64,000 nucleotides of DNA from a bacterium. Lineage in GTDB: Bacteria > SM23-31. The DNA lies in NCBI GenBank assembly GCA_965249485.1, contig CBDFMG010000005.1, positions 97,337-161,336 on the forward strand, read 5' to 3'. Position numbers and translations under genes: made by a program. Shown one piece after another: positions 29,481-63,504 of this stretch; positions within the stretch are counted from its first letter, which is position 1; each line of letters starts with the position of its first letter. The notes under the pieces are model-generated. The model searched no databases. It was not told the origin of the DNA and saw nothing but the letters and a program-made list of their open reading frames with translations.

Positions 29481-29595
29481 CAGAATATCCTGCTTCCAAT
29501 TCTGCTTGATTTTTCAAAGCACCTGTCTTGCAGACAGATGATTACGTTTTCTAGCATATCTGCAAAAAGGAAGACTGTATTTAAGGGGAATTCCT

Positions 29596-29601
29596 GTTAA
29601 A
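29596..29601 (+). promoter_or_regulatory. TATA box (ttaaat) about 25 nt upstream of the chimeric ORF start
   Basis: The promoter region is a duplicate of the TBP promoter and is spaced as in archaeal leaderless promoters. Confidence 0.35.
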
Positions 29602-29615
29602 TTGTAATCGTATTT

Positions 29616-30629
29616 TTGTATTTGATGAAAGTCGAACTGCAGATTGAAAACGTGGTGACAAAGACAGAGTGCTGCAAGACTTTTGATGTTGACGCGCTGG
29701 TAAAGTACAATGGGGCGTTTCGTGACATAGGTTTTCCTCCTGCAAAGTTTCGCTTCATGCGTCCCAAAAAACAAGTTACAGTCAACGTGTACAAGACAGG
29801 AAAGATAATCTGTCTTGGTGCAAAGTCAATAGAGAGGGCAATAGAGTACACAGAACGCATCATGAAAAAGCTTGACATTACGGACTCGTCAGAGATCACA
29901 GTAACGCGTGTAATGATGTCCGGACACTTTGTTGAAAAGGTGAACGTCTATAATGCAATACCTCTGATTGAAAAGGCAAGCAGATTCATAGGAATTGACT
30001 GCAACACAACAGGTCATGCTGCAGTAGTTGCCATACCTCATACAGGCAAAATACACAAGCTTGGAAAATCAGCCATTCATACGCATTCAAAATACAAGGC
30101 AGTTAGAAAGAAACTGCAAAGACAAGGAAAATTCTCACTGCTTAAAAAAATAAAAAACAAGGAATCAAGAATTGTAAAAAACATCAATCACCACGTTTCA
30201 AAAAAGATTGTCTCAAAGAATCAGGGAATCGTTTTGGAAAACATCAAGGGAATCAGAAAACTCTACAGAAAGGGAAACGGTCAAGGAAAAAAATATCGTG
30301 GAAGAATGAACTCCTGGAGCTACTACGAGCTACAGCGACAGATAGAGTATAAAGCTAAATGGGCTGGACTTCCAGTCCGATATGTAAGGGCAGTAGGAAC
30401 ATCATCAAAATGTGCGGTATGTGGAGTCAAGCTAATCTCCGAAGAGCACAGAAAGATGTGGTGTCCTAGTTGCAGAAATGTAGTTGATAGGGATATCAAC
30501 GCAGCCAAAAATATCTTGGCTAGAGGGATGAGGTTCGTCCCCGACGGGTCACAAGTTGAAGCGGTGAAGCAGTCAAAAGATGCAGAGCAGATTGTGGTCA
30601 GTAAGTCTCCAATGATTCTCTACAATTGA
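29616..30629 (+). CDS. Chimeric ORF joining TBP N-terminal repeat 1 (~122 aa) to the C-terminal two-thirds of an IS605-family TnpB (RuvC-I to RuvC-III plus zinc finger)
   Basis: Residues 1-122 are identical to the TBP gene at 31398-31943. They are followed by FIGIDCNTTGHAAVV (RuvC-I GID), a zinc finger CAVCG...CPSCRN, and RuvC-III VVDRDINAAKNI. The N-terminal WED/REC part of TnpB is absent. The start is TTG in the ORF track, and an in-frame ATG follows 3 codons later. Confidence 0.55.
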   Translation: MYLMKVELQIENVVTKTECCKTFDVDALVKYNGAFRDIGFPPAKFRFMRPKKQVTVNVYKTGKIICLGAKSIERAIEYTERIMKKLDITDSSEITVTRVMMSGHFVEKVNVYNAIPLIEKASRFIGIDCNTTGHAAVVAIPHTGKIHKLGKSAIHTHSKYKAVRKKLQRQGKFSLLKKIKNKESRIVKNINHHVSKKIVSKNQGIVLENIKGIRKLYRKGNGQGKKYRGRMNSWSYYELQRQIEYKAKWAGLPVRYVRAVGTSSKCAVCGVKLISEEHRKMWCPSCRNVVDRDINAAKNILARGMRFVPDGSQVEAVKQSKDAEQIVVSKSPMILYN

Positions 30630-30671
30630 AGGATCTGACGAAGACTTTACAGAACCAAAAATAGATGTCAA

Positions 30672-31397: not shown

Positions 31398-31943
31398 TCA
31401 TGAGTTTGCACGAAGAATTATGCCATACAGCTCGTCAACTGCACTGCGAATCGCCTCCTCATCAGGTCCGCTACAACTTATCTTTATTGGCTCGACTGTA
31501 GCAAATATGTGCGTTGAGGTATTTCTTCCAGTAATGACTATTGCCTGAAACGCCTCGGTGTCAACTACCACATTATATCTTGCCTTTTCAATCAGAGGTA
31601 TTGCGTTATAGACGTTCACCTTTTCAACAAAGTGTCCGGACATCATTACACGCGTTACTGTGATCTCTGACGAGTCCGTAATGTCAAGCTTTTTCATGAT
31701 GCGTTCTGTGTACTCTATTGCCCTCTCTATTGACTTTGCACCAAGACAGATTATCTTTCCTGTCTTGTACACGTTGACTGTAACTTGTTTTTTGGGACGC
31801 ATGAAGCGAAACTTTGCAGGAGGAAAACCTATGTCACGAAACGCCCCATTGTACTTTACCAGCGCGTCAACATCAAAAGTCTTGCAGCACTCTGTCTTTG
31901 TCACCACGTTTTCAATCTGCAGTTCGACTTTCATCAAATACAA
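31398..31943 (-). CDS. tbp: TATA-box-binding protein (TBP), about 180 aa with two repeats
   Basis: Repeat 1 reads ...QIENVVTKTECCKTFDVDALVKY...PKKQVTVNVYKTGKIICLGAKSIERAIEYTERIMKKL, the TBP pattern N-VV-x-L-D-L ... T-x-LIF-SGK-xVCTGAKS. A shorter second repeat is present. The size is archaeal. The true start is probably the ATG 3 codons inside the TTG-start ORF. Confidence 0.7.
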   Translation of the reverse strand: MYLMKVELQIENVVTKTECCKTFDVDALVKYNGAFRDIGFPPAKFRFMRPKKQVTVNVYKTGKIICLGAKSIERAIEYTERIMKKLDITDSSEITVTRVMMSGHFVEKVNVYNAIPLIEKARYNVVVDTEAFQAIVITGRNTSTHIFATVEPIKISCSGPDEEAIRSAVDELYGIILRANS

Positions 31944-31956
31944 AAATACGATTACA

Positions 31957-31962
31957 ATTTAA
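31957..31962 (-). promoter_or_regulatory. TATA box of tbp (ttaaat on the coding strand)
   Basis: Located about -28 from the ATG. A type-1 hairpin repeat (31966-32016) sits immediately upstream. Confidence 0.4.
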
Positions 31963-32046
31963 CGCTAACTGCCACCGTACAAGTACGGCGGTCTTCTCGC
32001 CGTGTGATTATAATTTCCCCTTAAATACAGTCTTCCTTTTTGTAGA

Positions 32047-32413
32047 TATGCTAGAAAAACGCAAAGAAGAATCAGATAGTATTGGAAAATACCAGGGCAT
32101 ACTTACCAGTGTAGTAATTGCTGCAATGATCATGTGGATTGCACCGATAATGATTCCGTATCTAGTCGGCCTTGAAGGCGAAGACGTAGACGGAAACCAG
32201 CTGTCTGGTGAAGATCTGTTGTTTGCGCCACCTTCAGATTCAGAGCTTCCCGAGGAGATATCTGACAGGATAAGCGGGCTGTTTGGAATCCTGATGTGGT
32301 TTGCAAGAATCGTTCTGATCTTTGGTGTCATAATTGCAGTAATCATACTGCGTATAAGACAAACAGAACCCCAGAACATGCCGATCGCTTTAAACGAAAA
32401 GTGCCTGTGTTGA
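32047..32413 (+). CDS. Small two-helix membrane protein, VirB2/TrbC-pilin-like in topology
   Basis: About 120 aa starting MLEKRKEE... Two hydrophobic helices are separated by an acidic loop. The gene lies just upstream of a VirB3-like and a VirB4-like gene. Confidence 0.35.
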
Positions 32414-32820: not shown

Positions 32821-32857
32821 GGTTCTGTTGGGTATCCACAGAAGACACAACAGGACC

Positions 32858-32942
32858 ATATGTTGACCTTTGTGCAAATTTGCACAGAGGTTCTGTCAAC
32901 TGAGACTCGGCATTTGAGTCCGCCAAAGGCGCAGCAGAACTT
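32858..32942 (+). repeat. Type-2 dispersed repeat (~85 bp), copy a of 4, all in the same orientation
   Basis: Consensus CCTTTGTGCAAATTTGCACAGAGGTTCTGTCAACTGAGACTCGGCATTTGAGTCCGCCAAAGGCGCAGCAGAA. It contains the perfect 16-bp palindrome TGTGCAAATTTGCACA. Other copies are at about 39238-39300, 41176-41215 (partial) and 44541-44625. Confidence 0.8.
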
Positions 32943-33030
32943 CCGATGACAGAACTTAGTTTATCATCACACGGCGAGAAGACCGCCGTACAAGTACGGT
33001 GGCAGTTCACAGAACAGCTGACCCTTTTAA

Positions 33031-34956
33031 GTGAACTGGCAATCTCAAGTCGTGTTAGGTATTACAAAGAAAAAGTCAAAAAAGCCTGCAACGCCAAAGC
33101 CAAAGAAAAAAAATGACGTCTCATATGGAATAAGCCCCACAAACTATCTTATCCTATCACCGGACGAAAAGACGCAGGTGCTGCGTTCGTTCATCAACGT
33201 CATACGTTCCATTGAAAAAAAATTACAGATTACAATTGTAAACCAGACAATCCACACAACCTTTGCCGGAAAGGATTATGACTATGTTGAAAAGATGGCG
33301 TACTTTACGTCAAGGCAGGATCTCGGCGTTGCGCTGCTTGGTACGGGGTTCAAGTCGACAAGGCAGGACGAGCCGATTGCATTCAAAGTTGCAAAGGAGA
33401 AAAGATCACATCTTGAGATGGTTGATGGGACATTCTGGAGGACGTATGTCATTTATGATTTCTCAAGAAAAATAGAGCCGGCATGGGTCAACCAGCTCTC
33501 TGCAATATGCGATATGACAAATGTGAGCATATCCCCTATGAAGGTAAGCTCTGCAAAGCGCATGCTCGTAACGCATGCAAACACCCTGGAATCCACAACA
33601 GGAAAGAGACAGCACCAGGAGGCGGCAGATGCAAGGGAGGTTGTAGACATGCTGGTAAAGAACCAGACGTCAGTTTACGAGTGTGGGATCACGGCAGTAG
33701 TCACTGCCACTAGCAGAAAGGAGCTAAAGTCAAGATGCAGGGAGTTTGAGAGAAACGCAAAGATGAGACAGATAAAGTTTCTTGCCGTAAACAGCAAGCA
33801 GAAAGACACCCTTGATGGCTGGGGGCACAAGTTCCTCTTTGAGGAGATGTCATGCTCTGTGTTTTATCCGTTCGAATCCTCAGACATGATAGAGGCAGAC
33901 GGTGCAGGTGGCGTGTACATTGGCACAAACGAGCTTACCGGCACCCCTGTAATCTATGACTACCTGAACAGGACAAACTACAACATGACGATTCTGGGAT
34001 CATCGGGGTTCGGAAAGTCAGTTGCAGCAAAGACATACATTGATAATTTTTATGCCATGATTGCAGAAAAGTACGGACCAGACCAAAAGATAATGTCGTA
34101 CATCCTGGACCTGCACGGGGAATATGTGGAGCTTGCAGGCTATCTGAAAATGGACGTGATGGACCTGATGGGACGTGGAGAGATGGGCCTTGATCCGTTT
34201 ACGCTTCTGGAGTCAAGTGACATGGCAGTTGACTTGATTACAGATGTGGCAAACATGCCACCAGAACTCAAATCACTTACGCTTTCAATGGCAGGCGGTG
34301 TGAGGTCAATCTCAGAGATGGTACGCAGACTTGAAAACGACTCCACTGACAATGCCGAGGACTGCCGAAAGGCGTCAACTTACCTGCTGCAGTTCGTAAA
34401 GGGCGGTCTTGCAAAGATGTTTGGCGGTGAGATGAAGATCAAAGACCGAACAATAATTGCAATGAGAAAGGCAACAGAATCCGACATCAACTCAATGCTG
34501 ATTGCACTGACCATGCAAAAGATATGGATGGACATAATAAGCGCGCCAAGACACGTGTCAAAGCTGCTAGTTATTGAGGAGGCGTGGTTCGTACTGCGCC
34601 TGCCCTCAACTGCTGCAATACTTTCAAACATTGCACGTTCTGGAAGAAAAGAAAACCTGCATCTCATAGTGATGACTCATGACATTGATGATTTTCTACA
34701 AAACGAGTACGGCGCGGCTATCCTCAAAAACTCTGCTACCGTGTTTCTGCTGGGACTAAAGGCATCAACTGCAAAGACACTCCAGGAGGTGCTTGACCTG
34801 TCTGACAATGAAAGAGACGAAATAACATACCTTGACAAGGGACAGGCAATAATGCGTGCAGACAGAAACCGAGTGAAGCTAAAGGTAAAGCCCACTCCAG
34901 AGCAGCTAAAGATATTCAATACGGCAGCATCAGGCTTTGTGCCCACGGGTGACTGA
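33031..34956 (+). CDS. VirB4/TrbE/CedB-like conjugation/secretion ATPase
   Basis: Walker A ILGSSGFGKS. DLHGEY follows about 30 aa later. Walker B LLVIEEAWFVL is the VirB4-family DEAW-type motif. Followed by ARSGRKENLHLIVMTHD. 641 aa. Confidence 0.65.
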   Translation: MNWQSQVVLGITKKKSKKPATPKPKKKNDVSYGISPTNYLILSPDEKTQVLRSFINVIRSIEKKLQITIVNQTIHTTFAGKDYDYVEKMAYFTSRQDLGVALLGTGFKSTRQDEPIAFKVAKEKRSHLEMVDGTFWRTYVIYDFSRKIEPAWVNQLSAICDMTNVSISPMKVSSAKRMLVTHANTLESTTGKRQHQEAADAREVVDMLVKNQTSVYECGITAVVTATSRKELKSRCREFERNAKMRQIKFLAVNSKQKDTLDGWGHKFLFEEMSCSVFYPFESSDMIEADGAGGVYIGTNELTGTPVIYDYLNRTNYNMTILGSSGFGKSVAAKTYIDNFYAMIAEKYGPDQKIMSYILDLHGEYVELAGYLKMDVMDLMGRGEMGLDPFTLLESSDMAVDLITDVANMPPELKSLTLSMAGGVRSISEMVRRLENDSTDNAEDCRKASTYLLQFVKGGLAKMFGGEMKIKDRTIIAMRKATESDINSMLIALTMQKIWMDIISAPRHVSKLLVIEEAWFVLRLPSTAAILSNIARSGRKENLHLIVMTHDIDDFLQNEYGAAILKNSATVFLLGLKASTAKTLQEVLDLSDNERDEITYLDKGQAIMRADRNRVKLKVKPTPEQLKIFNTAASGFVPTGD

Positions 34957-35133
34957 GGAAGAGGGTTCCGTACTTGTACGGTGGCCTTCTCGCCGTGTGA
35001 TTATAATTTACAAAAAATTGTACGGATTTCATCAAAAACAGACAAAAATGACACCGATATTCGCATTTCAAGTGACCCCAAATTTTTTGACTTTTCTGAA
35101 AAATGGGCAAAAATTTTGGCACTAGGCGTGGCT

Positions 35134-35177
35134 TTTTACACTTAGCTACATAAATTTATGTAGCTAAGTGTAAAAAC
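35134..35177. repeat. Perfect 44-bp palindrome
   Basis: TTTTTACACTTAGCTACATAAAT|TTATGTAGCTAAGTGTAAAAA is exactly self-complementary. It is intergenic, between the VirB4-like gene and the tRNA. Confidence 0.8.
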
Positions 35178-35370
35178 GAATTTCGCTATTAAAAACTTGG
35201 AAAAACAGAGAAATTTGTCTCCAAAATAGTAAAAGCATTCCAGTATAAATAAGTTTGGTTCTGGGTAATCTGGGCTCTGTCAAGTTAGCGGGTGTTAGCT
35301 AGAAATTTTATCCGTGTCAAGTGTCGGGTGTTTTAGTTCTTAAAATCAACCCTGTATGATGACATAATAC

Positions 35371-35457
35371 GCAGAGAGTGGGATTCGAACCCACGGTTCG
35401 GTAAAGAACTGATGCTCAAGAGACAACCACTCTAGACCTTACTAAGCAATCTCTGCA
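35371..35457 (-). tRNA. tRNA gene of ~87 nt with no encoded CCA; long variable arm or intron; anticodon not resolved
   Basis: Reverse complement reads GCAGAGA...GTGGGTTCGAATCCCAC TCTCTGC. That gives a perfect 7-bp acceptor stem and a canonical T-arm (GTGGG-TTCGAAT-CCCAC). A GTTC/GAAC extra stem fits a class-II variable arm. I could not fold the D and anticodon arms by eye. Confidence 0.6.
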
Positions 35458-35812
35458 TAAGTCCCAAAAATCATAATGCAATATAAAATACAATGTCCTA
35501 GTGGGATTCTTTACCTTTTTGCCTTCCCAACTAGAACGTTACTGTCTAATCGTGATTTGCAAGGGCACGACACACAAGACAGAATACCAAGAATCGAGGC
35601 ATTTTATATTCAAAAAATTCACATATAACTTTACCGTGCTGGAAATTACTGTAACATACTGTACGGTTCTGTAAAGTCTTCGTTTGTCATGAACCTGAAA
35701 CTATCAAAGACATCTCTTAGCTCGTCTTTTTTGTCGTGGAACTGCCAGACGCACTTTACTTGTTTCTCTAGTTGTTGTTGCTGCTCTTGTTTTTCTAGAT
35801 TCTTGAGGTGGC

Positions 35813-36031
35813 TCATTTGTTTTCAGTCTCTTTGATCCATTTTTTAGTCGCTTCGCGGATGTTGCGTTTTTTTGTGTCCACTTTCAACGGGATATAGATT
35901 CCATTGTCTGTGACGACGAGATCCAAAGAGTCTCCACGTTTAATGTTGTAGTTGTCCCGGATTACTCTTGGCAACAACAGAGCATGGGAATTTCCAACTT
36001 TCAGGACACTACTAGACAAAATAAGTGGCAT
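35813..36031 (-). CDS. AbrB/MazE/SpoVT-family swapped-hairpin DNA-binding protein
   Basis: LKVGNSHALLLPRVIRDNYNIKRGDSLDLVVTDNGIYI matches the AbrB/MazE pattern. The stop overlaps the ATG of a downstream 57-aa ORF (ATGA). Confidence 0.5.
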   Translation of the reverse strand: MPLILSSSVLKVGNSHALLLPRVIRDNYNIKRGDSLDLVVTDNGIYIPLKVDTKKRNIREATKKWIKETENK

Positions 36032-36120
36032 GTTGTTATTGTGTTTTATGTGTACTTAAGTATTACTACTGTTACTATCTTTGTAAAAATATTTATATAC
36101 CACGCTGACTATACTATAGC

Positions 36121-37320
36121 ATGATAAGAATCAGAAAAGACGAGTACATTCGAAGGAGATACGACGCCAAAATAAAGGGGTATGGTGACGGCACGTTGTT
36201 TCTTACAAACAAGCGACTTTGCTTCGAGTCCTCAAAGCACGGCGTATGCTTTAATCTGGAGCTGGCTCACATCTGGGATTGGCTGGCAAAAAAGAAAAAG
36301 ATCCGCATAAGATGGCAAGAGCTATATCCGGGTCAGTCTCAAATTCCATTTGATTCAGAGATTTTTTCAGTTGACATTGAACTCATAAAGAAAAACGGCT
36401 ACAGGGCAGATCCAGAAGAGGTTCACTTTGCATTGTTTTACGCTTACACTGACGAGATGAAGTACGGCTATGATGGTCTTGGTTGGCATGTTAATGAGAA
36501 AAGAGAGTTGCATCACAGATACGATTTGACGCCACAAAAGTACAAAACAAGTGGAATGCGAGAAGTCATGGAAGTTAAGCAATGGCAAGTAGACATCTTA
36601 GAGGAGCAGGAACTGCTAAAGGCGGCAGGCATTGATGAAAAACAAAGATATGAACTGCTCGGAGATTTTGTGGCGTATGGAGATGAATGGGTAGAGTTCT
36701 TCAAGAAAAACACTGGCAAGACACAGCTCGAGCAAGACATCTTCATCAGAGTAGTGAATAGAAAAGCTTGGCAAAAAGATGGTATTTTTGATAAGGTCTA
36801 TGGATTGAAAACAAAAGAGCAAATAGAAAAAAGACTGAAAAACAGATCTGAAAGCACATCTCACGACGAAAACACAATTAAGCATTTAAAACAAGACATC
36901 GCAAAGTATGAAAAGGAAAACAACACCGAGAAACTCACCGAGGTCTTTCCACCAAGCCACGCAAAGCCTGGCGAGCAACCTGTAAGATATATGAACGTCT
37001 TTGGTGCTGATGATTGTCAAGTCCATTCCAGCAACCCAAGACAACACATTCCAAATCTAGGTGGAACTCGACATGACATGGTAAAAAATTTGACACGCAG
37101 ATTGCCTGTATGGAAGCGACTGGAGGAAATATTGACTCCAATGAGATTCGAGTTTCATTCTCAATATGAGGAAGTGAGATTTGCAGTAACTATGAAGCTC
37201 TTAGAAAAAATTGAGAAGGGCGAGGATATTTCAAACTATGTGCCAAAAGTAGAATTGCCAGAATCAAAGACAATTTGGGCTGAAAAACACATTACAGAAT
37301 ACATTCAAAAAGCATCATAA
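36121..37320 (+). CDS. Hypothetical protein
   Basis: 399-aa soluble ORF with no motif I recognise. Embedded in the T4SS-like region. Confidence 0.4.
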   Translation: MIRIRKDEYIRRRYDAKIKGYGDGTLFLTNKRLCFESSKHGVCFNLELAHIWDWLAKKKKIRIRWQELYPGQSQIPFDSEIFSVDIELIKKNGYRADPEEVHFALFYAYTDEMKYGYDGLGWHVNEKRELHHRYDLTPQKYKTSGMREVMEVKQWQVDILEEQELLKAAGIDEKQRYELLGDFVAYGDEWVEFFKKNTGKTQLEQDIFIRVVNRKAWQKDGIFDKVYGLKTKEQIEKRLKNRSESTSHDENTIKHLKQDIAKYEKENNTEKLTEVFPPSHAKPGEQPVRYMNVFGADDCQVHSSNPRQHIPNLGGTRHDMVKNLTRRLPVWKRLEEILTPMRFEFHSQYEEVRFAVTMKLLEKIEKGEDISNYVPKVELPESKTIWAEKHITEYIQKAS

Positions 37321-37338
37321 CAAAAAAAGGGAAATCAT

Positions 37339-39372
37339 TTAATCAAGTGCGTCGACGTTTTTGGTATTTGCCTTGATTTGATTTCGCAGGTCTTTTTCAT
37401 CGATATGGCGTCTTTCTGACATCTCTGCGACGGCTCTTTGGCTTGCGACGTTTGGGTCAATACTGCGATCAGCAGACGTTATTGAAGATACTATCGAATC
37501 CATGTCTGCTTGTGTCGGATTATTTTGTTCCATCGCGGTATTAATCTTGCCCTTCCATTCTGCGATTTTTTCAGCTTGGGCTGGAGTTGTGTGTCCCTCG
37601 TTTTTTCTTTGTAATGTATTAATTGACTCATTCACAGCTTCAATGTTTTCATCTTTCGTCTTTGTATGATCATATTTCATTGGATTTCCATTTCCGTCTG
37701 TAATTCCAGACTGACCCATTTGTCCAACAAATCCAGGTGTCTGGTTTGCAGTGGGATCAGATGTAAACATCTCGTCAATTGCACCGTGCTGCTGCGCCTT
37801 GTCTGCGAACTGCGGACCTCCTCCACCTCCGCCACTTTGTGCAGCAGACTGCATGCCGTGGCCTACTGCTGCAGGATTCAGACCGCCACCCAAACCGGGA
37901 ACCATGCCGACACTGCCGTGAGACTGAAGGAGTCCGCCTCCAAAACCTCCCAGGCCACCCTTGAGCATGGCAAGGCCTCCGCTTCCCTTGTTTTTCATGG
38001 CGCCGCTCACACCGCCTGTGGCTGCCATGCCCGTAACCATTGCTGCTGACTGGACTGCAGAGGACACTGTCTGTGTCGCCATCTGCGTTGCAGACTTTAG
38101 TAAGGGAACCATCAGGACAGGCAGTGTGACTGCAAAGAACACGACACCGATTGCGGTAATCCACGTATGCACGTGATCAAAGCCGCCGCCTGTCTGCGGA
38201 GTCTGCAAAATTGCGCCGGCACCAACCACCAGGATCACAGAAGACATCAGCGGTATCAGCATCAGGGCGGGTATTGCGTCAATGAACTTGTTTGCAATCT
38301 CGTCGCCCTTTGGAATTAGCGACAGCATCAAAAAGAGTGGAAGTCCTGCAACAACCATCGCAGTCAGCATGTCAGTCATTATGCCGATGATCAAGGCCAT
38401 TATGAATATCTGAAGTCCGACAAGTGCCTTTGTCAGGCCGAGGAAAATGTTTGTAAAGGCGCCCTCTGTGCCCTTCTGGATAGAGTCCCCCAAATCACCC
38501 ATCCAGTTGCTTGCAGAGTCGATGTTGAGGCCCGTGCTGTTTTTCAAATCGGGAACATGCGTTGAGCGGAGCATCTGGCCAAAGACATACCTTACCTTAA
38601 AGTCGGGCTTGCAGATCTCCTCGTACCTGTGGCCGTGCAAGTCAACTATGTTGCTGTCAGTCTTCTGGCGGTCTGGAATGAACGGCGAGTCGTGATACTT
38701 TGACACCGCGAGAGACGGCGAATCATAATACTCGGCAGGGCACGGGTTCTGCTCGTCAAAGGAGTACAGTGGGTTTAGAATCCACCTGGATACGTCCTCG
38801 ATTACGAGCGTTGTTCCGTCCCAGAATGGGGGAAACACAAGAATCACAAGCAGAAACAGCACTCCCTTTGAGAGTATCTTGTTTGACGTGCCGGCCCTCA
38901 CAATTCCTGTCTCAGTTGATTCCAGCACTCGTGCGATTCCGGCGTAGATGAAAGCAATGACCATGGCACCAACTGCAATGTATCGCATCTGCACGTACGT
39001 GTCAAACATCTCGTTTCCGCCCTCACCTGTATCAGTTACCTCGTATCCGAATCCCGGCGTGACAAGTACGAGGTCAAGGTAGGTGCTCTCTATGATCCCT
39101 CCAAAGCTGATGACAACGCCGACTAGGGCAAATATCATGACAATCACGCCGCCAATCATTATCATTGATCCAAACGCCGGGCTTTTTGCTTGCATCACAC
39201 CAAAATTGCCGTTACAATATAAGGCCAATTTTGTCCTCGGTTCTGTCAACTGGCACTCAACATTCGAGTCCGCCAAAGGCGCAGCAGAACCAGAACCCCA
39301 ATGGAGTACAAAAAATGAGGGATGCCAAACCCGCCTTGATCGATAACTTTTTAATTTCCAAAAATAATACAA
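37339..39372 (-). CDS. VirB6/TrbL-like polytopic membrane protein with a Gly-rich region
   Basis: Multiple TM helices. A long Gly/Ala/Gln-rich segment resembles TrbL tails. Paralogous to ORF 43100-44428 (shared ...MTDMLTAMV...LPLFL..LSLIP and NP.YS.D...PCP... blocks). Confidence 0.45.
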   Translation of the reverse strand: MYYFWKLKSYRSRRVWHPSFFVLHWGSGSAAPLADSNVECQLTEPRTKLALYCNGNFGVMQAKSPAFGSMIMIGGVIVMIFALVGVVISFGGIIESTYLDLVLVTPGFGYEVTDTGEGGNEMFDTYVQMRYIAVGAMVIAFIYAGIARVLESTETGIVRAGTSNKILSKGVLFLLVILVFPPFWDGTTLVIEDVSRWILNPLYSFDEQNPCPAEYYDSPSLAVSKYHDSPFIPDRQKTDSNIVDLHGHRYEEICKPDFKVRYVFGQMLRSTHVPDLKNSTGLNIDSASNWMGDLGDSIQKGTEGAFTNIFLGLTKALVGLQIFIMALIIGIMTDMLTAMVVAGLPLFLMLSLIPKGDEIANKFIDAIPALMLIPLMSSVILVVGAGAILQTPQTGGGFDHVHTWITAIGVVFFAVTLPVLMVPLLKSATQMATQTVSSAVQSAAMVTGMAATGGVSGAMKNKGSGGLAMLKGGLGGFGGGLLQSHGSVGMVPGLGGGLNPAAVGHGMQSAAQSGGGGGGPQFADKAQQHGAIDEMFTSDPTANQTPGFVGQMGQSGITDGNGNPMKYDHTKTKDENIEAVNESINTLQRKNEGHTTPAQAEKIAEWKGKINTAMEQNNPTQADMDSIVSSITSADRSIDPNVASQRAVAEMSERRHIDEKDLRNQIKANTKNVDALD

Positions 39373-40401
39373 TATTGCCTGACAAGCAATATATGAGAAT
39401 TACAAAAATCAGGGCAAGAAAGCCCACACCGTTCAGGGTTGGGATGAATCGCCCAAAGACTTCAAGTATCAGAAAAACATTATGATATCATTGAACAAAT
39501 CAAAAAATATTGGATTTGAGATCAACACGAGAATCAGTAACACAGATGATTCAGTTCTCATTGGCTCGAATATTAATCAAAATCTAAAAAATGCGAATAT
39601 AAAAAAAATCAATGCATTACTCTACATTGTTGAATCATGAACCTCTAATTGAAAGATATGTGGATGTTAGTAAATTAGCTGGAGAAACTCACAAATTAAT
39701 TGCATTACAAATAGTTGCCACAGAGAAAACATATTCGTCAGAAGAAGGAGATGATTTCAAATTGACACTGACAAAACGTGGTATGATCATACTTAAAAAT
39801 TTACAAAATATGGTGATGATATGAAATGGTTGCATAGACGTAATAACAAAGCATCGAGGACTAGTCTTGAATGAAATAGATGTGATGAAAAAAGCGTTAG
39901 CTGATTCAGATGATGCAGTAAAATTAAAAAACATGAATGAAGAGTTAATGCAACATCTTTCAGGCTCTGTTTACTGGCTAATCAAATATTCTGAAAAATA
40001 CAACATTACATTACCCAAAAAGGAAGAATTGATACGAATGGTTGAAAAGGCAGATCTTATGATTAATCAAATGACTCAAAGAGCCGATCCGACGATTTTT
40101 GACAAAGAGAATTTCCGACGTAGACTTGACAGAACCCGAAAAATGGATCAAGGAGACTGAAAACAAATGAGCCACATCAAGCAACAACAAGTCAAAAAAA
40201 TAATTTCTACGAGTCCATATTAACAACAAGGTTATTATTCTACCAGATGTTCACATGTAAATTATGTCAAAAAAAATAAAACAAATTATAGAAAAAATTG
40301 AACGTGAAAGTTACCAAAACCAGACAGTAGTTCACCGAGCAAATAATTATGATGATGAATTGGATCCTGATTGTTTAAGATTGAGTTCACATTCATAAAA
40401 A

Positions 40402-40557
40402 ATGCCAAATTTTAGTGACATTCAGAAAGAAATTGAACACGAAGATATTCCCACCAAGTATATTATGACAGGTGAAGAAAAAAAGAAGTTGAAAAAATCA
40501 GTAGAAAAGAGCCTAAAACAAAACAAGCTAGTCTATGAAATGCTTCATGACCTTTAA
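40402..40557 (+). CDS. Putative Phd-like antitoxin
   Basis: 51-aa ORF MPNFSDIQKEIEHEDIPTKY... ending about 20 nt inside the Doc-family gene. Too short for the ORF track. Confidence 0.3.
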   Translation: MPNFSDIQKEIEHEDIPTKYIMTGEEKKKLKKSVEKSLKQNKLVYEMLHDL

Positions 40558-41176
40558 TGTCATAACATCTGATGAAATTATTTTCATTCATGAAATAATT
40601 GAAAAGAACTTTGGGTTGCCTAAAGGGCATATCAAAGTTGGCGACTTGGAAACATTACTTGAAAAAAGCAATGGCGTACCATTTTCAGAAAACCGTTATG
40701 ATTTGTTCATGCAAGCGTCAATTATTTTTGAAGGAATAGCAAGACTGCATATTTTTACAGACGGAAACAAAAGAACTGCATTAGAAGCAACAAGACAGTT
40801 TCTAAGTCAGAACAACCACGTTTTTATCATTCCACTAAGTGGAACCAATTTCATATACAATGTGGCAAGGAATGAAACCCATGATACTGACGGGTTAGTA
40901 TCTGACATTTCTGTATGGGTAAAAACGCATTCAGCAAAAATAAGTGAACGGTATAAAATTGCAGGTTTGCTGTTTTTACATCTTCTGCTGCCTTTGAAAC
41001 TGGTTAATTTTTTCTCAAAGATAAAACTAAATCGAATCAGCAGGTGGATACTATACAGATATTTAGAAAACGAGGATCCAAAAATAACAGAGCTCATGTT
41101 TTCAATCTATGAAAAACAGCTCGGTCTTTTTCAACCATCAGCAAAAGGGCATGAAAAACAAGACAAGACACCTTAG
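40535..41176 (+). CDS. Doc/Fic-family toxin
   Basis: HIFTDGNKRTALEA matches the Doc motif HxFx(D/N)GNKR. Confidence 0.6.
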   Translation: MKCFMTFNVITSDEIIFIHEIIEKNFGLPKGHIKVGDLETLLEKSNGVPFSENRYDLFMQASIIFEGIARLHIFTDGNKRTALEATRQFLSQNNHVFIIPLSGTNFIYNVARNETHDTDGLVSDISVWVKTHSAKISERYKIAGLLFLHLLLPLKLVNFFSKIKLNRISRWILYRYLENEDPKITELMFSIYEKQLGLFQPSAKGHEKQDKTP

Positions 41177-41377
41177 TGCAAATTTGCACAAAGGCTCTGT
41201 CAATCGATTCTCATCATTTGAACTTCAACTACACAATAGGCGTTTCCTGATATGACCATCCTCGTTCCTCTATGATTTCCTGTCATCCGTATTAATCCTT
41301 CACTGTTCTTTTTTCTGAACTGACATGCAGTACGTTCACCTTGTATTGCATCATTTGTGCGATAATGAATTGGCATG

Positions 41378-41683
41378 TCATTCTAACTTTTCAGTAATTT
41401 GTTCACTTTCTTTTAATTCAGACATTACATCCATCACCATTTTTAGATCTAAATCATATTCATTAGCTATGTCACTTGGATAAAATGCCTGACCAGTACT
41501 GATTTCTTTTAATACAATCTTCTTTACACTTTCTCTATCCAAGTCAAAATTATCCTCATCTTTGCTTGCTTGTGTTTCATCCAATCCATGAATCCTGACC
41601 ATATCCCACAATGTTTTATTCTCCGTTAACAGTCTTTCCATTAACTCACACAATTCACTAGTCAGATATGTCAAACTGTTCAC
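41378..41683 (-). CDS. Small acidic hypothetical protein
   Basis: 101-aa ORF with no motif. Confidence 0.3.
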   Translation of the reverse strand: MNSLTYLTSELCELMERLLTENKTLWDMVRIHGLDETQASKDEDNFDLDRESVKKIVLKEISTGQAFYPSDIANEYDLDLKMVMDVMSELKESEQITEKLE

Positions 41684-41875
41684 GTCGCCATATTCATTTT
41701 TCTGGAATTCATCTTCTCTGCTATGTCTGAATCTATTTTGCCTTTAACTTTCTTTGGAATTTGACATTCAATTGACATCAACTCCAAATCACTAAATACA
41801 CTTTCTAAAACCTCACTTACGAACAATCATCATCCGATGGTATAATTATGGCATTAGCCCAAAAATTATTAGAAA

Positions 41876-42736
41876 TTGTCACGTTATAAAAACCCAAGAA
41901 TTAATGTGAATATGAGTTCCGCCAAAGGAGTTATGATTGGCATTGTCGTACTAATTATTATTGGAGTTGCAGTAGCTTCTGCAGTACAAATCGTAGATGC
42001 GGGGCATAGAGGTGTTTTACTGCATTGGAATGCAGTTGATGTAACTGCCCAACCTTTAGAAGAAGGGCTTCACTTTGTAATGCCATTTGCAGATTCTGTT
42101 GTCAATATGGAAGTTAGAACACTAAAGTTTGTAAAATCAACATCTTCAGCATCTAAAGACCTTCAGACAGTTTCTACTGAAATTACAGTAAACTACCATC
42201 CATCTCCTGATTCAGTTAACTTCCTCTACAAAGAAGTTGGTCTTGACTATGAGAACAGAATTATCACGCCAACTGTAGAAGAAGTTGTAAAACAAGTTAC
42301 TGCAAACTATAACGCTGAGGAATTAATCACAAAAAGACCACAAGTAAAATCTGACATTGAAGCACAGATTAACAGTCGTTTGGTTGGCTTTAACGTTATT
42401 ACAGAAATAGTATCAATTACTGACTTTCAATTCTCAGCACTATTTGCACGAGCAATTGAAGATAAAGTAGAGGCAGAACAAAAGGCACTAAAGGCAGAAA
42501 ATGACCTTAGAAGAATCGAGGTAGAGGCAAGACAACATGCGGCAGAGGCAGAAGGTATTGCTGCAGCAAACATTGCAGAAGCAAACGGTGAAGCCGAAGC
42601 AATTAGAATTATTAACGAAGCCCTATCATCCAACCCTAACTATTTGGAATGGCTAAAAACACAAGCATGGGATGGAAGATTACCATTGGTAGTTGGTGAA
42701 GGCGGAACACCATTTATTGCAATCCCAACTGAATAA
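41876..42736 (+). CDS. SPFH/band-7 (prohibitin/stomatin-like) membrane protein
   Basis: N-terminal TM segment, SPFH core (GHRGVLLHW...MPFADSVVNMEVR...), and a C-terminal Ala/Glu-rich coiled coil (EAEQKALKAENDLRRIEVEARQHAAEAEG). Confidence 0.65.
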   Translation: MSRYKNPRINVNMSSAKGVMIGIVVLIIIGVAVASAVQIVDAGHRGVLLHWNAVDVTAQPLEEGLHFVMPFADSVVNMEVRTLKFVKSTSSASKDLQTVSTEITVNYHPSPDSVNFLYKEVGLDYENRIITPTVEEVVKQVTANYNAEELITKRPQVKSDIEAQINSRLVGFNVITEIVSITDFQFSALFARAIEDKVEAEQKALKAENDLRRIEVEARQHAAEAEGIAAANIAEANGEAEAIRIINEALSSNPNYLEWLKTQAWDGRLPLVVGEGGTPFIAIPTE

Positions 42737-42834
42737 TTCCTGTCTAATTCTTTTTCTCAGCATCTGATTTGTCTCTTACAGTGCTGTGTTTCTCAACGTG
42801 ACTAGTTTGCCCAACTAATTCTACCAAACAAGCT

Positions 42835-43098
42835 TTGGATCAGAACATTTTGTATTATTTTATGAATAGGAATTGGAAAAAATACAACACATCACTAGTT
42901 AGACGTGGGGAAATCATGCTCTCCTTTGATGCCGTGGAACAGTGGGGTACAGAACTCAAGGAGATGAACCACAAAAAGGAAGGACGTCAGTATATCTATC
43001 CTGAATCCTTCATGGAGGCACTAGGGGAAGTGACGCTTGTGGAGAGTGCAAAGCATTCAATGAAACAGGAAGAGGCCACCGTACTTGTACGGTGGTAG
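42835..43098 (+). pseudogene. N-terminal fragment of an IS5-family transposase, truncated by a type-1 hairpin repeat
   Basis: ...SFDAVEQWGTELKEMNHKKEGRQYIYPESFMEALG matches the N-terminal region of ORF 11239-12075. The reading frame runs into the repeat (ccaccgtacttgtacggtgg) and stops. Confidence 0.5.
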
Positions 43099-43099
43099 T

Positions 43100-44428
43100 T
43101 CACTCTTCACCTTTACCACCAGCAGCACCGCCGTCTTTCTCAGGACTGGACATAGCGCTACCCTCGTGCGCCGTTATTCCGCCTTTGATGCCACCAGACA
43201 CGCTGCCCTTGAACCCACCTTTTGCGTAACCCTGTATTGCGCCCTTTCCTGCCATGGCAGTGATGAATAACGCCGTAGTTACTGCCGATGTCATCACCTG
43301 CATTGTAGATCCTACAACTGATGAGAGCAGTGGCACCATTAGCATCGGAATGGATACTGCAAAAAATACCACGCCAAGCGATGCAATCCAGACATATATC
43401 AGAGTGGTGTCAAAGCCTGCAATTATCTCACCTGTGTTTGCAGTGCCTGCCGATGCGATAAAGCTCGCACCGACACTGATTACAATTGCAGAGACCAGCG
43501 GTATGAGGTACAGTCCCGGCAGTGCCTGCAGGAACTTTGCGACGATTTTGTCAAAGCGCGGAATCAGCGACAGTGCCAGGAACAGCGGCAGTGACACAAT
43601 CACCATCGCAGTCAGCATGTCAGTCATCATGCTGATTATCATGGACAGCAGTGAAACGTTGATCACTATTATTGCCTGTGCAAACCCGAAAAACGTGTCT
43701 GCCAGCACGTTTGTAAACGCGCCGGATATCTGATTGGTGATCCATTCCAGCGTGTTTGCGCCCTCGGGCAGTTCATATGATGCGGTGCCTGCCATCTGCT
43801 GTATGACATAGTGGACCTTAAAGTCAGGCCTGCACACTATCTCTGCCTTTTTGATGTCGGTTCCAAAAAAGTCATACGCCGTTCCGTCCTTGTCATACTT
43901 TGAGTCGTTGTATTCGCGGATTATTTTTTGATCAGACCAGTCATCAGGACACGGCGAGTCGGGGTCGTATGAATAGTTCGGGTTTAGCACCCATACTGCT
44001 GCAATCTCCATTCCGTCAGCTACTGCATCCCATATGAATGGAAACAGCGCAATCAGAAATATGATCATGACACATCTTGAGATTAGCTTTCCTCCCAGCC
44101 CCTTTTGTACGGTTGAGACTTCGGACTGCTCAAAAAATTTCAGCAGTACTGCAACTACGACGACCACTGCAATCAGGATCAGTGCCAGAAATCGCATCTG
44201 CGTGAATGTCTCAAATATGTAGTTTCCATGCTCTGTGCCGTCATTTTGTATGGAATACTCAAAGACCGGCAGTGTGATCAGCTGAAGCGTGTACGCGCTG
44301 TCCATCATGTCGCCTATGTCGTTTGCAATATTGGAAAAGGTAATCTGTATGAGTATTATGGCAAGTATGGTTACTGCAGCGTCTATCAGCTCTGTGATGA
44401 TTGCCGGGTGTTGTTTTTTCAACAACAC
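43100..44428 (-). CDS. VirB6/TrbL-like polytopic membrane protein, paralog of 37339-39372
   Basis: 442 aa with multiple TM helices. Shares conserved blocks with 37339-39372. Lys/Gly-rich tail. Confidence 0.45.
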   Translation of the reverse strand: MLLKKQHPAIITELIDAAVTILAIILIQITFSNIANDIGDMMDSAYTLQLITLPVFEYSIQNDGTEHGNYIFETFTQMRFLALILIAVVVVVAVLLKFFEQSEVSTVQKGLGGKLISRCVMIIFLIALFPFIWDAVADGMEIAAVWVLNPNYSYDPDSPCPDDWSDQKIIREYNDSKYDKDGTAYDFFGTDIKKAEIVCRPDFKVHYVIQQMAGTASYELPEGANTLEWITNQISGAFTNVLADTFFGFAQAIIVINVSLLSMIISMMTDMLTAMVIVSLPLFLALSLIPRFDKIVAKFLQALPGLYLIPLVSAIVISVGASFIASAGTANTGEIIAGFDTTLIYVWIASLGVVFFAVSIPMLMVPLLSSVVGSTMQVMTSAVTTALFITAMAGKGAIQGYAKGGFKGSVSGGIKGGITAHEGSAMSSPEKDGGAAGGKGEE

Positions 44429-44658
44429 CCAAGGCAGTATTCATTATAAGGAGCGTGGATTTCTCAAAGAGGATTCCGTGAACTGCCGCCGTACAAGTAC
44501 GGCGGCCTTCTCGCCGTGTGATTATAAATTGTCATCCTGCATGTTGGCCTTTGTGCAAATTTGCACAGAGGTTCTGTCAACTGAGACTCGGCATTTGAGT
44601 CCGCCAAAGGCGCAGCAGAATCCAGGGGCCTTATAAACAACTACACATCTGATGGGTA

Positions 44659-46155
44659 TTGTTTGGATGGAAGAAATCAGAAAAAGAAGAGTCCGTAAAG
44701 TACAAGCTATCGCACATGGATGTTGACGTTACAGGGCTTGACATAGTGGAGGAATACAAGGTAGGCAAGGTAAAAGTCTACATCACGTCAGACTCAAGAT
44801 ACCTGGTAAAAGAGCCGCCTATAGGCGACTCTGCAGTGAATTTGTACAATACCATCATCGACAAAATTAACATGGGAGTCGAGCTAACAGACGCGGATAA
44901 GGACCCCAAAGTTCTTGCCGACAAGCTGGAAAAGGCATTTTGGGATACTGCAAAGAGACTTGAAAGGTATGACGAGGCGACACGGATGTTTCCTGACCTG
45001 ACGTACTACATTCACCGCGAGATGCTAGGTTATGGGATTATTGATCCGCTGATGAAGGATCCTGCAATCGAGGATATCCTGTGCTCTGCATACGACAGAA
45101 ACGTCCGCGTGATACACAAAAGATATTCCGGCATTCACCACAGCCTTGAGACAAACATTGCATTTGAGAGCGTCACTGAGATGGAGAGGTTCATCCAGAA
45201 GGTGTATAGTAAGACAGGTACGGAGCCCACAGAATCAAGACCGATGTCTGTCACACACATGGCAGACGGCTCCAGAATCTCTGCCACCTTTGGAAAACAG
45301 GTGACACAGCCTGGCCCGATAATTGCGATACGAAAGTTTCCAACAGAGCCGTTTACGATAACCGACATGCTAAAGACAGGGCACCTGTCATCTCAGATGG
45401 CAGCATACATCTGGACTATGCTTGATGCAAAGGCAGTGGGGCTGGTAATCGGTGTCACAGGATCCGGCAAGACTACCCTGCTTTCTGCGTTTGTATCGAT
45501 GATGAACCCGGGGTGGAGGATACTCACAATTGAGGATACGCTGGAACTGCAGATACCGCATGAGGACTGGGTTAGGGCAAACACCAGAAAAAGCTACGGA
45601 ATGCTTTCAGAGAAATTCGACATACCCATCAGAAGCCTGATTGACATGTCACTTACACAGAGGCCGGACTACGAGATTGTCGGCGAAATCAGACTGGATG
45701 ACATGGATGCGCTGTTTCAGAGTGTCGGCACCGGACACGGCGGGTTGACAAGCTTTCACGCATCAACCCCAGGGGGCGCACTGACTCGAATGAGGGGAAA
45801 CAAGATCAGCGAAGGCGAGCTTGCACTGCTGTGGTTTACGGTGCACTCTGCCAGCATAACAAGGGACGGAGTCGACACAAGAAAGGTGACAGATATCTCA
45901 GAGATAGTGCCAGACGAGATGACCGGCACAGTTGCAGTTAATAACATATTCAAGTATGATATTTTTAAGGACAAGTTTGTGCAGAACCAGTCACTTGAGG
46001 AATCATACAGATACCAGGAGGCCTTGCAGATATGCGGAATCCTAGATCCAAAAGAAGACATGAAAAAAAGAATAGCCCTCCTTGAGCAGTGTGTCAGCAA
46101 GGACGTCTCTGACGTGCACAAGGTCTTTGAGATTCTTAGAAGATATTACGAATGA
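44659..46155 (+). CDS. VirB11/FlaI/GspE-family secretion ATPase
   Basis: Walker A GVTGSGKTTLL. Asp box ILTIEDTLEL. His-box-like RPDYEIVGEIR. 498 aa. Confidence 0.7.
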   Translation: MFGWKKSEKEESVKYKLSHMDVDVTGLDIVEEYKVGKVKVYITSDSRYLVKEPPIGDSAVNLYNTIIDKINMGVELTDADKDPKVLADKLEKAFWDTAKRLERYDEATRMFPDLTYYIHREMLGYGIIDPLMKDPAIEDILCSAYDRNVRVIHKRYSGIHHSLETNIAFESVTEMERFIQKVYSKTGTEPTESRPMSVTHMADGSRISATFGKQVTQPGPIIAIRKFPTEPFTITDMLKTGHLSSQMAAYIWTMLDAKAVGLVIGVTGSGKTTLLSAFVSMMNPGWRILTIEDTLELQIPHEDWVRANTRKSYGMLSEKFDIPIRSLIDMSLTQRPDYEIVGEIRLDDMDALFQSVGTGHGGLTSFHASTPGGALTRMRGNKISEGELALLWFTVHSASITRDGVDTRKVTDISEIVPDEMTGTVAVNNIFKYDIFKDKFVQNQSLEESYRYQEALQICGILDPKEDMKKRIALLEQCVSKDVSDVHKVFEILRRYYE

Positions 46156-48465: not shown

Positions 48466-49143
48466 ACAATCAAATCATCAACATGTATTAGCAACCAAAT
48501 ATTGCTGCACACGTGCAGGTTCATCATCCAGAATGCGAAGCACCATTCCGTATCTGTTGGAGTTTTTCTCATATACGATAGTGATTCTCTCCCTGCCAAA
48601 AACGGTACAGGACAGTACAGAATCAGCATTTAGCAACACTGTCTCCATTCCGGAAATCTCTACTTTGATGATGCCATTCTCATCAATGTCAAGCATCCCT
48701 TTTTTTCCATATAATGAAACCGAAAAAGATTCCATACCAGAGATTGACAGATATTATTTAACGCTGTGAGCGGGGGTTCTGTCAAGTTCTAGTCACCTGA
48801 AGTGTGGATCTTCTCCGTGTTAAGAGTCGTCACCTAATCTGAGATATCATTGCAAAACTATCATTTGAAATTAAGGTGCCTGGCACCCCCCTGTCCAAAG
48901 TGTTCAAACCATGCGACAAAAGGAAGACTAAACTTCCAGTGGTGTGTCAGGCATGTTTGTATTGTAATACGCATATAATACGGTTATGCTGCATCATCGT
49001 CAGAAATATCTCTTAATTTTGTAATACCACGGCGAGAAGGCCACCGTACTTGTACGGCGGCAGTTCACTACATCTTCCTCAGACATGTTTTTCTCATTCA
49101 TAATCCGTGCGACATGCCCTGATACCTGTAAGATTCAACCGTC

Positions 49144-50232: not shown

Positions 50233-50381
50233 ACTAATAGAGTGAATATTTTAATTTCCATGAATCAGGAAGCCAACGACTTTATCATTTTTTATAATCA
50301 CACGGCGAGAAGGCCACCGTACTTGTACGGTGGTGGTTCACTGTATCGTTTTTTTAAATTTAAAGTCATGATAAAATGGTT

Positions 50382-51820: not shown

Positions 51821-51988
51821 GGTTCTGGTAAATTCTGATGATCAGATCACCAGAAGTTAGCAGCAGGGTTTACAGCACCGCCCTTTGAGTTTGTTCTCAT
51901 ATGAAATTCTCACAAAGTTGCAAAATCTCAACTCAGAGAAGATCCTAAAACTATGTCTGGGGTGTTGATCACCAAAATCTACCAAAGC
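51821..51988. mobile_element. MITE of ~168 bp, copy A
   Basis: Near-identical to 55599-55766 and inverted at 62216-62362. Its ends are GGTTCTGGTAAATTCTGATGATCAGATCACC / GGTGTTGATCACCAAAATCTACCAAAGCC. No ORF. Confidence 0.7.
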
Positions 51989-52129
51989 CACCCTCTGTTG
52001 CAATTAAAAAACCTGCAGGTCTTCTTCCTTCAAGTTTATTGAATATTCTTTTTTCCCTATCATACTGCCAATAATGAATTGGAGCCTCGTATGGTTTATT
52101 GATGATAAGTGTTGGAATTGTAGACATCA

Positions 52130-55598: not shown

Positions 55599-55766
55599 GG
55601 TTCTGGTAAATTTTGGTGATCAGATCACCAGAAGTTAGCAGCAGGGTTTACAGCACCGCCCTTTGAGTTTGTTTTCATATGAAATTCTCACAAAGTTGCA
55701 AAATCTCAACTCAGAGAAGATCCTAAAACTATGTCTGGGGTGTTGATCACCAAAATCTACCAAAGC
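55599..55766. mobile_element. MITE of ~168 bp, copy B
   Basis: See 51821-51988. Inserted between the integrase remnant and the eno fragment. Confidence 0.7.
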
Positions 55767-55770
55767 CTTC

Positions 55771-63438: not shown

Positions 63439-63504
63439 CCCGATCCGATCATCAGAATTTAACAGAACCCAGCATCAGTTGTAGAGAGCCTGCACCGCAA
63501 TAAA

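Follow-up and report, generated by a model that had tools for sequence, protein, structure and literature searches.

The intergenic repeat family T2, found in a 64,000-nucleotide stretch of contig CBDFMG010000005.1 (the whole stretch is called the window here), is probably a short, gene-less derivative of a thaumarchaeal insertion element that carries tnpB; it would be of the miniature transposon-end type and serve as a substrate of recombination. The window comes from an ammonia-oxidising archaeon of the Nitrosopumilales (Thaumarchaeota), where it forms an integrated conjugative element. T2 is homologous to the ends of tnpB elements and shares their termini, its copies exchange sequence by gene conversion, one copy marks a breakpoint between island haplotypes, relatives of the island lack the repeat, and signatures of a structured RNA or an operator are absent.

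The T2 family comprises four copies in the window (c1 to c4, Table 1), which are all intergenic and all on the plus strand; a shared strand is expected by chance in 1 of 8 cases, which is not significant. A preliminary description of the window had reported four same-strand copies, and these are confirmed with the refined boundaries listed in Table 1. The full unit is composed of two modules. Module A, ACCTTTGTGCAAATTTGCACAGAGGT, is a 26-nt hairpin containing the 16-mer palindrome TGTGCAAATTTGCACA. Module B is 53 nt long and has the organization GGTTCTGTCAAC...GACTC-N7-GAGTC-CGCC-AAA-GGCG-CAGCAGAAC(C), with inverted termini GGTTCTG(T)/(A)CAGAACC of 7-8 bp; the full A+B unit has no bounding inverted repeats. 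Copies c1 and c4 share 99% identity over 80 nt. With a length of 53-83 nt, T2 is too short for a transposase gene. The perfect 16-bp palindrome ascribed earlier to the repeat is exact in two copies, c1 (at 32871) and c4 (at 44552), and has one mismatch in c3 (at 41175); shuffled sequences are expected to give 0.05 matches. Copy c2 has the poorly matching sequence GGCCAATTTTGTCC in place of the palindrome.

Module B resembles the 3′ end of a tnpB gene together with the right end of its element. We compared the window with three more haplotypes of the same island from ENA assembly ERZ26167216 (L001, L032 and L046), which are 93-99% identical to it, and searched profiles of T2 against 170 kb of related loci. 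The sole non-T2 match of a profile built only from c1, c2 and c4 of the window was L001 13381-13434 (25.5 bits, E=1e-6), and the profile from all T2 copies matched the same tnpB end at E=1.8e-9. The matched segment is the 3′ end of a tnpB fragment (3′ sequence ...GATGCTCAACATTTGAGTTCACCGAAGACGCAACAGAACC), in which the last ~52 nt comprise the TGA stop codon and the right end with the terminus CAGAACC. The tnpB stop codon is retained in T2 as CATTTGAGT, inside the profile alignment, and canonical T2 is ~83% identical to the L001 tnpB end over 30 nt. A match to the end of an insertion element is what the preliminary description itself had named as evidence against the functions that it put forward.

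The terminal bases of module B are those of larger elements. Its end, CAGAAC(C), is the terminal oligonucleotide of full-length tnpB elements (ACAGAACC), and GAAGAC-NNN-ACAGAACC is present at tnpB 3′ ends of this lineage in the window, L001, L032, L026, L028, L029 and L030; variant termini, CAGAGCC and CAGTCCC, occur in L043 and L033. The TnpB element of L026, a Thaumarchaeota metagenome-assembled genome (MAG), is bounded by terminal inverted repeats matching at 23/24 positions (GGTTCTGTCAAGTTAYAGGGACA, starting GGTTCTGTCAAG; score 41, null maximum 30), and the left edge of module B matches the start of this inverted repeat at 11/12 positions. A 37-nt relative of module B lies directly upstream of c1. 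It starts with GGTTCTGT, as does module B, and its last 21 nt match a tnpB-right-end variant (L001 12753-12773) at 19/21 positions, for which the estimated chance of a 21-mer with ≤2 mismatches in the window is ~6e-5. Because of the tnpB-end match, the shared termini, the L026 inverted repeats and the 37-nt relative, we interpret module B as a miniature derivative of TnpB-element ends. The L026 element (1370-3414) has a single gene, which encodes a 647-aa TnpB with a LAGLIDADG-type intein-like insertion in the zinc-finger region.

Copies of T2 at the same locus carry different internal variants of module B in different haplotypes. Copy c2 contains GGCACTCAA in the window, in contrast to GAGACTCGG in L046; the counterpart of c1 in L001 (4833-4914) has an internal variant, and the L046 copy entered for c4 (9882-9961) is 100% identical to c1. 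The 3′ halves of module B grade from GGCGCAGCAGAACC to the tnpB-type GACACAACAGAACC, and the flanks stay identical. This variation is gene conversion among the copies and with tnpB ends. Decay differs by copy, with module A lost at c2, module B at c3, and a symmetry-breaking change in the c3 palindrome of L046. Homology of the window to L001 (98%) breaks off precisely where c2 ends on its right, at a terminus that in L001 abuts tnpB codon 188. Beyond the four haplotypes, T2 is absent from the conjugation loci of the distant relatives L002, L060 and L061, where the sites cannot be aligned, and none was detected in the more distant island L002.

We hypothesize that module B is the terminal piece of a TnpB element, holding the last tnpB codons, the stop codon and the right end finishing ACAGAACC. 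Its left edge, GGTTCTGTCAAC, would be the inverted-repeat terminus of related elements, to which the 26-nt hairpin of module A was attached. Before the divergence of the sampled haplotypes, the A+B unit may have been copied into a number of intergenic sites of the island, presumably by an enzyme acting in trans to transpose it rather than by duplication and recombination. The present copies, which decay independently and, by gene conversion, homogenise one another and exchange with tnpB right ends, would be selfish or neutral dispersed repeats that have no co-opted function; they also supply homology for rearrangements of the island. The intact parent tnpB element is predicted to have the right end CTCAACATTTGAGTTCACCGAAGACGCAACAGAACC and a left end starting GGTTCTGTCAAC, with or without module A.

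Several observations weigh against the derivation of T2 from TnpB-element ends. The clean alignment to the tnpB end is limited to the last ~36 nt of module B; the left 17 nt are 41-59% identical and may represent what remains of a left end, or right-end sequence that is contiguous but diverged. Statistically clear inverted repeats are present in L026 only, as those at the TnpB loci L025, L027-L029, L032, L033 and L043 do not rise above the shuffle null. No sequence like module A was found upstream of any tnpB examined or elsewhere in the 170 kb of related loci, and half of the T2 unit is unaccounted for, because module A has no counterpart in these TnpB elements. The window yielded no transposase that could be assigned to these ends. 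No direct repeat that would represent a target-site duplication is common to the flanks of c1, c2, c4 and the 37-nt relative. No pair of filled and empty T2 sites was found: wherever one of the four haplotypes (window, L001, L032 and L046) covers a T2 locus, the repeat is there. The mobility of T2 is inferred, since presence/absence polymorphism is lacking among the four haplotypes. Finally, c1, c4 and their L001/L046 counterparts all have the palindrome without a mismatch, and such perfect conservation is also expected of a functional protein-binding site.

Other sources of T2 sequence were considered and set aside. Module A was rejected as the left end of the parent on account of the absence of A-like sequence from the related loci, and GCAAA(A)TTTGC motifs near the right end in L030 were judged to be coincidental rather than relatives of module A. 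DDE transposons were dismissed as the source of the GGTTCTG termini, because the two IS5-like insertions that comparison of filled and empty sites could delimit have other ends: AACTTTGTTTCC for L032 2999-4141, and TGCTGTGTTTCC with a ~8-bp duplication for L046 14443-15454. The DDE element of the window (62342-63469) has a ...TTTAACAGAACC end on one side only.

Table 1. Positions of T2, T1 and TnpB-element ends in the window.
Feature	Position	Strand	Description
T2 c1	32860-32941	+	module A hairpin 32866-32891 (palindrome 32871-32886) and module B 32889-32941
T2 c2	39239-39291	+	module B only (3′ 53 nt), complete GGTTCTG...CAGAACC termini
T2 c3	41170-41245	+	module A, palindrome 15/16 (41175-41190); decayed module B from 41193, without CAGAACC end
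T2 c4	44541-44622	+	module A 44547-44572 (palindrome 44552-44567) and module B 44570-44622
Module B relative, 37 nt	32821-32857	+	GGTTCTGTTGGGTATCCACAGAAGACACAACAGGACC; directly upstream of c1
C-terminal tnpB fragment (residues ~185-399)	29985-30656	+	right end ...GACGAAGACTTTACAGAACC, terminus 30650-30656; behind duplicated TBP-domain gene start
tnpB remnant, same lineage	35665-35825	-	right-end terminus (GGTTCTGTAAAGTCTTCG on + strand) joined to first ~50 tnpB codons
Isolated right-end-type terminus CTTGACAGAACC	40125-40136	+	abuts 3′ end of MazE/AbrB-like frame (shared tail ...KWIKETENK) and second tnpB 5′ remnant
Left-end-like GGCTCTGTCAAGTTAGCGGG	35275-35295	+	17/20 match to left inverted repeat of L026 TnpB element
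Left-end-like GGTTCTGTCAAGTTCTAGTCACC	48775-48797	+	17/23 match to inverted repeat of L026 TnpB element
Mini-repeats, ~47 bp	1025-1075, 4937-4987, 8750-8798, 12046-12092, 51821-51871, 55599-55649, 62215-62265
T1 copies	917-967, 31963-32013, 32959-33012, 34956-35006, 43021-43104, 44477-44527, 49017-49070, 50291-50343
T1 beside c1	32959-33012	-	17-nt spacer from T2
T1 beside c4	44477-44527	+	~11-13-nt spacer before T2

The copies are located at gene boundaries, as the preliminary description had observed. Copy c1 lies between an unannotated 174-aa open reading frame (ORF) and the VirB4-like gene, which starts at 33052 according to the called protein P0001. Copy c2 is near the 5′ end of the divergent TrbL/VirB6-like gene, 44 nt upstream of its ATG (39195). 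Copy c3 is at the 3′ end of the Fic/Doc gene, whose TAG stop (41174-41176) overlaps the palindrome, with convergent genes on either side. Copy c4 ends 37 nt before the VirB11/FlaI-like gene (44659).

This arrangement has a possible reading as a regulatory cassette, in which the palindrome is the putative operator of a dimeric island protein (for instance MazE/AbrB-like or helix-turn-helix) that co-regulates the VirB4-like and VirB11-like ATPase genes, and the transposon tail is a passenger. We regard it as unlikely, although it accounts for the exact palindromes and for the placement of c1 and c4 upstream of both secretion ATPase genes, just outside TATA-like sequences (33023-33030 and 44628-44637). 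A MazE/AbrB-like gene also adjoins the tnpB remnants of the T2-parent lineage, and the same 18-mer palindrome recurs in ~7 unrelated phage contexts of the IMG/VR database, as operator-like sequences do. However, the distance from the palindrome centre to the start codon is ~174 nt for the VirB4-like gene and ~100 nt for the VirB11-like gene. The c3 palindrome falls on the Fic/Doc stop codon, where two genes converge, and is broken in L046; c2 has none. Relatives with the same ATPase genes do without T2, their entire intergenic region being 48-131 nt long. The identity of c1 and c4 extends equally across module B, and the palindrome is therefore no better conserved than the rest of the unit. 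The promoter or operator cassette suggested in the preliminary description does not agree with a palindrome whose distance to start codons is not fixed, which coincides with a stop codon in c3 and which c2 lacks.

The transcription of T2 as an orphan guide RNA or small structured RNA, that is, an omega RNA used in trans with the DNA after CAGAACC as its guide, is improbable. Module B does correspond to the extreme 3′ end of the omega-RNA-coding region in TnpB elements, and gene-less derivatives that keep omega RNAs have been described (PMC10055086). The fold of c1 is better than those of shuffled sequences (z = -3.45), but it is mostly the palindrome itself. T2 is devoid of the core GAAGCNNTGAAGCAGTCAAAAGATGCAGAGCAGATTGTG and of a candidate long-range stem, which are present in 7/7 of the close tnpB 3′ regions aligned. 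Substitutions break the three hairpins of module B, helix 3 being broken in the L001 copies. The covariation test covered a small sample of 8 sequences and 16 pairs, in which one pair had a double change and the score was reached by 106/500 shuffles. A search of Rfam 15 at the gathering threshold returned only a tRNA, and relaxing it to E up to 10 on both composite regions of T2 and T1 gave chance matches only. None of the 16-nt flanks that follow T2 or T1 right ends is matched a second time in the window. The small structured RNA considered in the preliminary description thus receives no backing from covariation, hairpin conservation or Rfam.

Least probable of all are dedicated att-, dif- or shufflon-like sites, at which the island tyrosine recombinase or another recombinase would excise or invert modules: c1 and c4 are direct repeats around an 11.7-kb module, a haplotype breakpoint falls at the end of c2 and an integrase gene is present at 54801-55538, but the exchanges are patchy conversion tracts at varying points within module B with no fixed crossover core, module content differs between copies, no isomer with c1-c4 deleted or circularised was found among the four haplotypes, and the integrase is 10 kb away beside direct repeats of its own. 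Of the recombination sites proposed in the preliminary description, the gene conversion and the c2 breakpoint stand; the exchange looks like homologous recombination, and no dedicated site-specific system was seen. A tRNA or attachment-site origin of T2 was rejected with ARAGORN and Rfam, in line with the preliminary description: the two programs give only tRNA-Lys at 35369-35457, and T2 is not tRNA-like.

We return to the derivation of T2 from TnpB-element ends and to its relation to known miniature elements. In TnpB elements, the terminal stretch next to the stop codon both closes the guide-RNA scaffold at its 3′ end and marks the edge of the transposon. Module B corresponds to this stretch when compared with TnpB right ends and omega-RNA regions, known from IS200/IS605 and IS607 elements and from archaeal 3′-overlapping IS1341-type transcripts (PMC4615843); T2, in contrast, has neither the conserved upstream scaffold nor an adjacent tnpB gene. 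Haloarchaeal palindrome-associated transposable elements (PATEs) and the terminal-only forms derived from IS605/IS1341-type elements (Dyall-Smith et al. 2011, PMC3119063) share with T2 their non-coding length, tnpB-element ends, near-terminal hairpins, lack of target duplication and clustering with mobile-element debris, and deletion of a PATE core leaves units of ~50 bp (PMC3119063). Unlike in PATEs, the hairpins of T2 (module A and CGCC-AAA-GGCG) are unrelated to one another, and neither occurs in the parent tnpB ends. Module B carries the inverted termini GGTTCTG/CAGAACC, which PATEs by definition lack, and the T2 parent lineage shows inverted repeats in L026 instead of the paired hairpins of the IS200/IS605 type.

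MITEs (miniature transposable elements with inverted repeats) and the Haloquadratum small mobile repeats (SMR) are, like T2, small, non-coding and intergenic, and the terminal bases of module B match larger elements of the same community, as theirs do. SMR further share with T2 the lack of target duplication and a position beside other mobile elements. The differences from MITEs are that the inverted termini of module B are only 7-8 bp long, the A+B unit is not bounded by inverted repeats, presence/absence polymorphism was not seen, and the interior of T2 is homologous to the tnpB 3′ end of the parent. On account of this interior homology, T2 is better described as a deletion derivative than as a classical MITE.

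Remnants of the T2-parent tnpB lineage are scattered through the window (Table 1). The tnpB gene reduced to a remnant at 35665-35825 is intact in L001 and L032. A small ORF is located directly upstream of tnpB of this lineage in three haplotypes (window 35813-36031 on the minus strand, L032 5801-5977 and L046 265-441). Its window copy matches the Pfam family of MazE/AbrB-type antitoxins, which is an unusual partner for tnpB. Only the last ~10 codons of the small ORF recur upstream of a tnpB 5′ remnant (~40137-40160), inside a 97-aa ORF with no Pfam match. In L030 3204-4540, the C-terminal half of tnpB is replaced by a two-gene cargo and the right end CTTGACAGAACC is kept; by eye, the cargo products look DprA-like and phosphoribosyltransferase-like.

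The motif CAGAACC/GGTTCTG occurs 37 times in the window, compared with ~9 expected occurrences. The window also contains families of ~47-bp palindromic mini-repeats with GGTTCTG...CAGAACC termini and no visible target duplication. It is conceivable, but doubtful, that all GGTTCTG...CAGAACC elements (T2 module B, the 37-nt relative, the mini-repeats and the L026 TnpB element) are one superfamily moved by a single enzyme. Were this true, a TnpB/guide-RNA lineage of ammonia-oxidising archaea would have left the hairpin-ended IS200/IS605 framework to ride inverted-repeat ends, and the T2 palindrome could be the protein-binding site of that system.

The partner repeat T1 has a separate origin. An intact IS605-type tnpB element in L046 (4338-5740) carries the 3′ two-thirds of T1 at its tnpB-distal end and the 5′ part of T1 at its tnpB-proximal end. 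The hairpin is present at both ends, in versions that differ by compensatory changes (CCACCGTAC..GTACGGTGG compared with CCACCCAAC..GTTGGGTGG). Since each end holds part of T1 and the hairpin, T1 consists of both element ends fused at the hairpin; it can be shown to be an IS605-type TnpB element reduced to its joined left and right ends, a terminal-only PATE. The matching hairpins at both ends of the L046 element give T1 the near-terminal palindrome of PATEs, and its construction is the same as that of the 52-bp terminal-only PATE HqIRS46 of Haloquadratum (PMC3119063). Position 43021-43104 of the window is a right end with a tnpB 3′ remnant. T1 is also present in two Nitrosopumilus MAG loci (L025 and L026) and in L063, a tnpB relative from a 292x contig of the ERZ26167216 sample, where T2 is absent. 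Because T1 represents the fused ends of another TnpB element, the intergenic DNA of the island is largely transposon debris.

The preliminary description had T2 and T1 directly fused into ~150-bp composites. The repeats are instead separated by spacers at both places (Table 1), and because T1 is oppositely oriented in each, the two composites are not copies of one unit. The T1 copies beside c1 and c4 are mutually inverted and bracket an 11.5-kb segment. In the window, 9.7 kb separate the VirB4-like (33031-34956) and VirB11/FlaI-like (44659-46155) genes, which share a strand and both have T1/T2 in front of them; in the three more distant islands L002, L060 and L061/L062, they are adjacent and divergent, 48-131 nt apart. 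Judging from this gene order, a T1-mediated inversion of the 11.5-kb segment probably separated the normally adjacent genes, and inverting it would restore their adjacency. In L001, two T1 copies bracket a 480-nt cassette, in the place of which the window has one hybrid T1 (32959-33012).

T1 also interrupts a duplicated gene start. An inverted duplication (29547-29980 / 31579-32058; 385 nt perfect and 44 nt at 98%) contains the start of a TBP-domain gene. Only one arm is interrupted by T1 (31963-32013), and the other has TTCCT there. An arm of the duplication is fused in frame to the TnpB C-terminal fragment (ORF 29616-30629). In a further difference between haplotypes, a 399-aa ORF (36091-37308) is inverted in L001 (9406-10629) relative to the window, L032 and L046; it is only 87% identical in L001, in contrast to its flanks at 98-99%.

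The assignment of the window to an integrated conjugative element is based on its genes. Pfam identifies VirB4-like, VirD4/TraG-like, TadC-like, TrbL/VirB6-like, FlaI/VirB11-like, TBP-domain and tyrosine integrase genes, followed by ribosomal protein S2. The VirB4-like protein is 57% identical to its Cenarchaeum symbiosum counterpart, and the tnpB relatives come from Nitrosopumilus, Nitrosotenuis and Nitrosotalea. The same set of VirB4/TrbE-like, VirD4/TraG-like, VirB6-like and TadC-like proteins, a FlaI/PilT-like ATPase, an integrase and a tRNA gene characterizes thaumarchaeal integrative-conjugative elements (Krupovic et al. 2019, PMC6563490), for which TFIIB-type factor genes are described, whereas the window has TBP-domain transcription-factor genes. 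That study makes no mention of MITEs or TnpB; the repeat content is an added detail on these elements and not a new kind of island.

Other features of the island lie outside the repeats. A DNA methylase gene and that of the tyrosine integrase lie between direct repeats of 169 nt (98% identical; 51821-51989 and 55599-55767), just before the gene for ribosomal protein S2 (55917-56540); the repeats are candidates for attachment sites or for the border of the island. The tRNA-Lys(CTT) on the minus strand is located within the island between transposon remnants; it probably carries an intron, because its 89 nt exceed the 71-position Rfam tRNA model. Genes of defence or toxin type in and around the island encode a TIR-domain protein (13830-14537, minus strand), an AIPR (abortive-infection) protein (57893-59641, plus strand) and Fic/Doc (40535-41176, plus strand); an exact database look-up found the Fic/Doc protein not on record. 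The ORF 6571-7587 on the minus strand contains tandem repeats of 42-99 nt (6710-7170) and encodes a repetitive product with no Pfam match.

Searches of public collections gave no T2. A strict module-B pattern had 0 matches in GTDB representatives and IMG/VR. A looser pattern had 20 metagenome (JGI) and 2 viral matches, with unrelated interiors and in the number expected by chance. PLSDB contained no plasmid matching the 14-kb region. The palindrome was found in 13 IMG/VR contigs, all unrelated bacterial-phage contexts without module B, which are uninformative on the origin of T2.

The reading of T2 as a derivative of TnpB-element ends replaces a candidate regulatory RNA or operator with a concrete origin. 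The intergenic DNA of the island is largely the ends of two TnpB elements, the T2 lineage and the IS605-type T1, and it is at these repeats that the haplotypes differ, by gene conversion, gain or loss of a cassette between T1 copies, the c2 breakpoint and probably the 11.5-kb inversion. The analysis also provides end sequences for thaumarchaeal TnpB elements, which annotators need when predicting guide RNAs. It further suggests that module shuffling in archaeal conjugative elements is driven by miniature transposon remnants.

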